NCBI GenBank assembly: GCA_965207375.1
Contig: OZ242274.1
Span: 960,001 to 1,024,000 of the forward strand
Direction: 5' to 3'
DNA: 64,000 nucleotides
Source: Nitrosopumilaceae archaeon
GTDB taxonomy: Archaea; Thermoproteota; Nitrososphaeria; Nitrososphaerales; Nitrosopumilaceae
A program made the position numbers and the translations under genes. This document shows positions 47,071-47,346 of the stretch, piece after piece. The notes beneath the pieces were generated by a model that was given only the letters and a program-made list of their open reading frames with translations, had not been told where the DNA came from and ran no database searches. The number at the start of each line of letters is the position of its first letter. The stretch's first letter is position 1.

Positions 47071-47346
47071 TATATGAAAAATTTTTCTCCTACGGCTACG
47101 TACTGATTATATTGGATCTGAGGGCTGAATTAACAATACCTCGTATGAAGGTGAGTAATAGACTAGCTCACAGTAAGCGGACAACAAAATACCACGTTTT
47201 TGATGAATGGTGAATGGGAGTATTCCGCAAGGTCAGGTCCACAAATTTTGATCAAAAAGGAGATGATGATATCATCAACATCGGAATAGACGTTCACAAG
47301 AAACAATGTGTTGCAACCATAAAAAATGATAAAAGCAAAAAGAAAT
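47071..47346 (+). mobile_element. IS110-family element, left end with noncoding region and transposase N-terminus, displaced by inversion
   Basis: IR atatgaaaaat at 47072-47082; IINIGIDVHKKQCVATIK at 47271-47346 joins in frame to 40401 across the aaagaaat duplication. Confidence 0.88.
47113..47241 (+). ncRNA. Candidate IS110 bridge/seek RNA
   Basis: 9-bp closing stem and two stem-internal-loop arms whose loop strands match the target and donor junction. Confidence 0.75.

Follow-up and report, generated by a model that had tools for sequence, protein, structure and literature searches.

A probable bridge/seek RNA gene in an IS110-family insertion sequence of a thaumarchaeon

The 64,000-nt stretch of Nitrosopumilaceae archaeon contig OZ242274.1 analysed here (positions 960,001 to 1,024,000; hereafter the window) contains a two-arm structure of 129 nt at 47113-47241 (+), upstream of a gene for a DEDD+Ser transposase of the IS110 family. 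The question raised by this locus is whether the loops of the structure are the guides of an RNA serving that enzyme. No guide RNAs other than bridge/seek RNAs are known to specify both recombination partners, and the characterised examples are all bacterial. A preliminary description of the window had proposed an archaeal RNA-guided IS110 recombinase system, a reading that is supported by a conserved non-coding RNA (ncRNA), by structural covariation, by covariation of the loops with the flanks and ends of the element, and by an archaeal small-subunit ribosomal RNA (SSU) sequence. We conclude, with a probability of roughly 0.9, that 47113-47241 encodes the guide RNA (bridge RNA or seekRNA) of an IS110-family insertion sequence (IS) in an ammonia-oxidising thaumarchaeon. 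Directly observed are sequence relations, structural covariation, guide-DNA covariation, empty sites and catalytic residues. The element, named ISw here, measures ~1335 bp once reassembled.

The strings and stems listed in the preliminary description were all confirmed by eye. The closing stem pairs tggatctga (47113-21) with tcaggtcca (47233-41), and arm 1 has the stems gggctg/tagctc and acct/aggt. Folding, a check named in that description, gives the two-arm architecture as the minimum free energy (MFE) structure. Within arm 1, AATTAAC at 47128-34 is identical to 39339-45 and GTAATAGAC at 47155-63 is identical to 47060-68; within arm 2, ATGGGAGT at 47214-21 is the reverse complement of 39344-51. 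The 9-mer GTAATAGAC has two occurrences in the window, at 47060 and 47155, and the 8-mer ATGGGAGT is found at three places. The 7-mer AATTAAC occurs at 20 places and is thus informative through its position alone.

Covariation between loops and targets, the test set by the preliminary description, extends to all four loop strands, which covary with flanks or ends in both the seed and the non-seed set of related elements. In the seed set (18 elements), the 3' strand of arm 1 matches the left junction at 9/9 positions in ten elements, 8/9 in three and 7/9 in two, and poorly in three (L003, L011 and L044), which the script scored at the wrong register. One of the ten, L022, is inserted in the guide region of another copy and is therefore not independent. 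None of 20,000 derangements reached the observed sum for the left flank, although the script sliced the 9-mer one base off; for the right flank, the summed longest exact run was 74, compared with a mean of 41.7 and a maximum of 52 in 20,000 derangements. The non-seed set (21 elements with 15 distinct guides) matches the cognate left flank at 81 of 90 variable positions, while non-cognate pairs match at a mean of 2.23 of six; the observed match was reached by 0 of 100,000 derangements.

The second arm follows the ends of the element. Its 5' triplet is the reverse complement of left-end nt 2-4 in 13 of 18 elements by script, in one more by eye and in three more by wobble, and fails in L003; six different triplets covary with these bases. 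What had been described as a weaker (a)caac match comprises a pairing of 3 nt (AAC:GTT), which covaries across the family. The 3' strand of arm 2 equals the right end plus core in all elements and matches the right junction over at least 8 nt in 8 of 14. In 8 of 14 elements it runs on for 1-4 nt into the right target, as it also does in L031 and L032, where it reaches 4 nt past the core. In arm 1, the ninth base of the 3' strand follows the first base of the element (C, T or A; L025, L027 and L037), and the 5' strand of many homologues covers the core too, by U-A and U.G pairs. All four strands fit in L031 and L032 (protein identity 42-46%), and right-flank matches are 9/9 in L031 and, with one G.U, in L064. 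Four guide variants of one element are present in genome G116, and each sits at a flank that it matches; in one variant the left end (GCT for GCC) and the arm-2 triplet (AGC for GGC) have changed together. Natural reprogramming has taken place inside this single genome.

Structural covariation is strong. In homologues of 49-66% protein identity, the upstream regions align across the whole structure, the stems being conserved and the loops variable. RNAalifold identified four helices in a MAFFT alignment, with compensatory changes in 9 of 20 pairs. A covariance model (R1; 126 positions, 26 pairs), in which the closing stem was added to the RNAalifold structure, matches one site beside each of the five ISw copies and nowhere else in the 4.3-Mb genome. 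R1 also matches 28 places in the fetched loci, including members outside its building set. Of 151 genomes sampled from the class it matches 8, which all belong to the window's own family (7/80 there), and none of the others searched. Across 27 distinct R1 matches, 95.9% of cells are paired (30-46% with slid partners), and 18 of 26 pairs are compensatory with both sides changed, a number reached by 0 of 500 shuffles; this alignment was fitted to the model and is hence biased towards it, and the independent MAFFT/RNAalifold result agrees in direction. Three near-invariant G.U pairs in the covariance alignment are workable on the transposase-sense strand only, as the preliminary description had claimed, indicating that this is the strand that folds. 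The RNA lies upstream of the transposase in all 28 + 24 model matches, and only ~60-85 nt lie beyond the stop codon in the ISw group.

The enzyme belongs to the family in which such RNAs operate. Domains PF01548 (DEDD_Tnp_IS110) and then PF02371 (Transposase_20) were identified on the 3' segment of ISw in the window (E 8.9e-15 and 1.1e-19), and the protein matches the structures of IS621 (8wt6, E 2.6e-13) and ISCro4 (9t56, E 9e-11). The genome contains five ISw copies or fragments, among them L002, which is 98.3% identical to the window copy and has an uninterrupted 376-aa frame from an upstream ATG. In a phmmer alignment to 8wt6_A, residues D11, E60, D102, D105 and S241 of IS621 are aligned to identical residues in L002 (chain residues 13, 62, 104, 107 and 243, chain numbering being that of the IS621 paper plus 2), and the position of G242 is occupied by Ala. 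Relatives were found by protein search in 52 of 301 genomes of the class. The closest bacterial relative, on an Allorhizobium plasmid (34.5% identity), was considered as well; it has no similar scaffold by eye and no covariance-model match.

Empty sites fix the boundaries of the element. GA is present at both junctions (GTAATA-GA-CGTT.. and ..ATGG-GA-GTTAATT), and the empty site GTAATAGA-GTTAATTTG (47060-67 followed directly by 39345-37 in reverse complement) is intact elsewhere in the genome, in a small miniature inverted-repeat transposable element (MITE). Matches of GTAATAGAGTTAATTTG in the genome comprise two exact and five one-mismatch occurrences. The preliminary description had instead assumed a GT core and a contiguous 16/16-nt empty site, GTAATAGAC-GTTAATT, which does not occur in the genome. 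An element start at 47069, which would give a GT (or GTTA) core, was rejected: the left and right 'cores' disagree in many homologues, and the predicted 18-mer has no genomic match with fewer than three mismatches. Because the GA-core 17-mer is found uninterrupted and the GT-core 18-mer is absent, the core is evidently GA and the element start 47068. The guides proposed earlier are accordingly retained in part: eight nucleotides of the arm-1 9-mer are left target plus core, its ninth base, C, belonging to the element, and ATGGGAGT does hold the right end (ATGG) and core GA, its last two bases extending into the right target. Both extensions are handshake-like.

Fifteen of 35 empty-site matches with up to three mismatches lie directly after a 12-nt terminal repeat, GTACTTGTTCAC, which bounds an ~82-bp MITE as well as an IS66-family element of 1497 bp (present in 10 copies, ~99% identical; its open reading frame (ORF) matches DDE_Tnp_IS66). 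The ~82-bp MITE family (for example, G000:C1 1766724-1766806, L079) shares this 12-nt terminal inverted repeat (TIR) with the 1497-bp element and carries the ISw target; ~20 TIR pairs lie 62-142 nt apart. The repeated left flank of ISw was also considered as part of an IS110 relative, an idea ruled out by its identification as the end of the TIR-bearing IS66-family element.

The window copy itself has been rearranged. An IS110-type reading frame (..IINIGIDVHKK..) at 47271-47346 is ended by an inserted IS and resumes on the minus strand at 40401, running to the stop at 39404; joining 47346 to 40401 restores a single IS110 frame. Two ~1.74-kb IS66-family copies with a 496-aa transposase lie in inverted orientation and are 99% complementary (alignment 40401-42162 / 47331-49092). 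The 8-bp target duplications have been exchanged between the copies: ATTTCTTT, found at 40402-09, is the reverse complement of 47339-46, and AATTATTC is the duplication on the other sides of both copies. Thus, IS66 insertion into ISw came first and inversion of the 5.2 kb between the copies later, so that the preliminary description was right to undo the inversion. Subterminal repeats like those of ISw, of 8-15 nt, are present in 14/14 homologues with both ends according to a rough script. DNA beyond the right target (39223-39320) is 82-87% similar to the 3' coding end of ISw (39415-39520), and a relic of another ISw-like copy therefore abuts the window copy. The coordinates of all features are collected in Table 1.

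Table 1. Features of ISw and its surroundings in the window
Feature	Position	Strand	Evidence
Probable bridge/seek RNA gene, closing stem P1 to P1	47113..47241	+	Covariance-model match 47108-47240; R1 score 119.9 bits; compensatory changes in five helices
Arm 1, predicted target-binding loop; 3' strand GUAAUA (47155-60), core GA (47161-62) and C (47163, element's first base)	47122..47169	+	Covariation with right and left flanks
Arm 2, predicted donor-binding loop; 5' strand AAC (47183-85), complementary to element nt 2-4 (GTT, 47069-71); 3' strand AUGG (47214-17), core GA (47218-19) and GU (47220-21, right target's first two bases)	47177..47228	+	Triplet and right-junction matches across homologues
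ISw 5' segment: left end, ncRNA gene, first ~25 codons of transposase	47068..47346	+	Boundaries from five own-genome copies; frame goes on from 40401 downwards
ISw 3' segment: remaining transposase (stop 39404-06), right end, core GA (39347-46, minus strand)	39346..40401	-	PF01548 and PF02371; 95-100% identity to L002/L003
Left subterminal inverted repeat ATATGAAAAAT	47072..47082	+	Perfect inverted match, 11 bp, to 39350-39360
Right subterminal inverted repeat ATTTTTCATAT (transposase sense)	39350..39360	-	Perfect 11-bp match to left repeat
Shine-Dalgarno-like GGAG, then ATC (47271-73) where homologues have ATG/TTG/GTG	47259..47273	+	Alignment of 22 upstream regions; ORF lists
Left half of target (LT): GTAATA (47060-65) and core GA (47066-67)	47060..47067	+	With reverse complement of 39345-37, exact 17-mer uninterrupted at two other genomic places
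Right half of target GTTAATTTG (transposase sense)	39337..39345	-	Part of empty-site 17-mer
IS66-family insertion, copy A; transposase 40487-41977	40410..42147	+	PF03050, E 6e-31; termini by eye
IS66-family insertion, copy B; transposase 47516-49006	47347..49083	-	Termini by eye
Segment inverted via recombination of the two IS66-family copies	42148..47346	n/a	Swapped 8-bp target-site duplications
Outer left flank: 'ISx'-like IS66-family relic (TIR GTACTTGTTCAC), corresponding to the element's left ~90 nt	46969..47059	+	86% identity to first ~100 nt of 1497-bp IS

The host and the other copies place the window in context. Scored on the same locus, the SSU models give 1444.9 bits (archaeal) and 1086.2 bits (bacterial), and related elements come from metagenome-assembled genomes (MAGs) of Thaumarchaeota, Nitrosopumilus and Nitrosotenuis; the genome is archaeal. 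In an alignment of the five ISw 5' regions, the only hypervariable blocks are the two arm-1 loop strands. L003 (G000:C1:2084639-2085976) is a 95% identical copy with an in-frame TGA. Its left-target guide is a third variant (CCAACAGAC), its left end is GCT as in the L004/L005 subtype, and it may be a recombinant between subtypes. The ATG at 47214 belongs to the conserved arm-2 guide AUGGGAG. In the ISw lineage alone, the frame is open from this ATG, and translation from it would lengthen the protein by 23 residues; in homologues such as L019, the equivalent of 47214-47273 contains a stop codon.

Three arrangements were seen among the relatives. The L022 locus (1304-1384, 1399-1527) has an element inside the target-binding arm of another copy, exactly after that copy's own left-target guide and with an unmatched right side; guide-coding DNA served as a half-target here. 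L008 and L012 are two copies of a related element 9 kb apart on CBDAOT010000007.1, in a MAG labelled Candidatus Poribacteria, which could reflect a mis-binned archaeal contig or a transfer. In L049 (G082:C110), the left end upstream of the RNA is truncated at the subterminal repeat and fused to the reverse complement of the right-end motif (CTCCCAT), a head-to-head rearrangement.

Together, these relations suggest how the element would move. We infer that the molecule is an RNA, that the recombinase binds it, and that strand exchange and the handshake proceed as follows. A closing stem and two arms with internal loops would make up the folded RNA. The target would be read by arm 1, whose 5' strand would pair with the top strand right of the crossover (GTTAATT) and whose 3' strand would pair with the bottom strand left of it (GTAATA and core GA). 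Arm 2 would read the joined ends of the element, its 5' strand pairing with GTT at the left end and its 3' strand with ATGG and core GA at the right end; the predicted circle junction is right end ...CATATGG-GA-CGTTATATG... left end. Each 3' strand would reach 1-4 nt into the other DNA in a handshake-like manner, which would stabilise strand exchange. The DEDD+Ser recombinase would then swap strands at the GA core, and the inserted circle would have GTAATAGA on one side and GTTAATTTG on the other. This site lies 12 nt within the terminal repeat of the ~82-bp MITE or of its IS66-family relative.

Covariation by itself shows only that one strand folds and that its loop bases match DNA, and would also be expected if that strand acted as single-stranded DNA whose subterminal hairpin guide bases pair with the target in the manner of IS200/IS605. 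This is highly improbable, since the enzyme is a DEDD+Ser transposase of the IS110 family with the catalytic residues of IS621, and the structure lies 45 nt inside the end of the element, just upstream of the ribosome-binding site, and has conserved G.U pairs; in the available passages on the IS110 family, moreover, the RNA has been purified and solved in complex (PMC11208160, PMC11208158, PMC11187229). The same position next to the Shine-Dalgarno sequence, with an ISw ORF that even begins inside arm 2, could point to a cis-acting 5' leader that regulates the transposase, its flank matches being incidental. A leader would not be expected to reproduce the insertion site, however, and the loop strands are the sole hypervariable blocks and track flanks and ends in ~30 elements to a degree that no derangement reached in 100,000, making this explanation scarcely credible.

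Several observations nevertheless weigh against a functional guide RNA at this locus. The thermodynamic z-scores of the fold are insignificant (-0.45 and -0.99) and are not counted as support, and an Rfam search of 38000-50500 (E up to 10) found no bridge-RNA family, the lone match being a chance miRNA elsewhere. In the window type, the 5' strand of arm 1 does not cover the core and that of arm 2 pairs with 3 nt only. The guides of L003 fit its flanks poorly (5/9 on the left at the true junction by eye, longest exact run of 3 on the right) and its arm-2 triplet does not match its left end, while the fragments L004 and L005 match the left flank at 7/9. Every ISw copy has ATC at the position of the homologues' start codon. 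The transposase of the window copy is split and inverted and this copy thus cannot move by itself; its RNA gene is intact, with the same guides as the intact copy L002. The absent start codon, the split window copy, L003 with its TGA and mismatched guides, and the fragments would all fit a real family whose ISw lineage is extinct in this genome, no copy making active recombinase and the RNA here being a fossil. Such extinction seems unlikely, if far from negligible, because the 376-aa frame of L002 is uninterrupted, because L002 and the window copy, at 98.3% identity, occupy different MITE copies with perfectly matching guides in both, and because exact unoccupied targets remain.

The system is of a known kind, in an unusual archaeal variant, and the gain is incremental. 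Bridge RNAs have already been predicted in most IS110/IS1111 elements by large surveys, and in 32,190 loci according to the part of a 2026 preprint available (bioRxiv 10.64898/2026.10.21.760802), and the present family may be in the supplements of Durrant 2024 (Supplementary Table 5, Data) or among the 86 models of that preprint. No paper joining IS110, bridge RNA and Nitrososphaer* was found among the matches listed in a literature search, which lay outside the survey supplements. What the family offers is a well-resolved archaeal example whose code can be read (a 6-nt left target, GA core, 7-9-nt right target and handshake bases), whose guides have been reprogrammed naturally inside single genomes and whose empty targets are identified. 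It joins traits that the literature, in the passages available, uses to separate the IS110 and IS1111 groups, a mix relevant to how the RNA passed from one element end to the other and to the archaeal IS110 recombinase-Nop5 link proposed in the accessible part of Vaysset et al. (bioRxiv 10.1101/2024.06.21.599552). Tentatively, and with odds somewhat below even, the Nitrosopumilaceae elements might form a third architectural class of RNA-guided DEDD recombinases, with IS1111-type guide polarity, long subterminal repeats, a bridge RNA in the left end ahead of the gene, a fixed GA core, the need for an archaeal promoter, and natural reprogramming still under way in archaeal lineages alive today. 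The crossover site would then have changed its position with respect to the RNA-gene cassette more than once in the history of the family, and archaea would hold functional bridge systems of their own.

As far as the passages of the IS621 papers go (PMC11208160, PMC11208158), ISw resembles IS621 in its DEDD+Ser recombinase, in an ncRNA in the left end upstream of the gene, in having the target-binding loop first and the donor-binding loop second, in loops that assign a separate strand to each strand of the DNA about a shared dinucleotide core, and in handshake bases that prolong the 3'-side guides into non-cognate DNA. It differs in guide order, which is reversed in every ISw-family member examined, as if the gene-plus-RNA cassette had been inverted relative to the crossover site; this reversal, already proposed in the preliminary description, is borne out by the same passages. 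From the viewpoint of the RNA, the geometry would be the same if the DNA were turned round, and the 3' strands would still hold the core and handshake extension. The core is CT in IS621 and GA here, subterminal repeats are 2-3 bp (or absent) in the IS110 group and a perfect 11 bp here, protein similarity is low (E 2.6e-13), and the host is archaeal, so that a sigma-70 junction promoter cannot apply. The left subterminal repeat contains a TATA-like TTATAT (47070-75), which may belong to an archaeal promoter.

The available text of Siddiquee et al. (PMC11187229) describes IS1111-family seekRNAs as having the top-strand complement first, with subterminal repeats of 11-13 bp as a family hallmark and the non-coding region downstream of the gene, a few named exceptions apart. 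ISw is like the seekRNAs of ISEc11, ISPa11 and ISKpn4 in placing the top-strand complement 5' of the bottom-strand complement, and like IS1111 elements in its long near-perfect subterminal inverted repeats, short asymmetric terminal extensions, transposase of ~350 aa, and targets in repeated or mobile-element sequences. The RNA and non-coding region are upstream here, whereas they are downstream in nearly all IS1111 members described, and the terminal extensions are 4 + 4 nt (or 6 + 2) here and 7 + 3 in IS1111. Compared by published description only, ISMtsp17 and ISHvo10/ISAcp5 resemble ISw as IS1111-like elements with a long upstream non-coding region. ISHvo10 we take to be possibly archaeal, solely from its Haloferax-type name. 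All three are named as relatives of IS1111 in which the non-coding region is upstream, or is double (PMC11187229). A bacterial IS110-family element is similar, as far as its description goes, in having a specific target in the terminal repeat region of another transposable element, with a different target and host. ISw combines the guide order of IS1111 seekRNAs and 11-bp repeats with the upstream RNA of the IS110 group.
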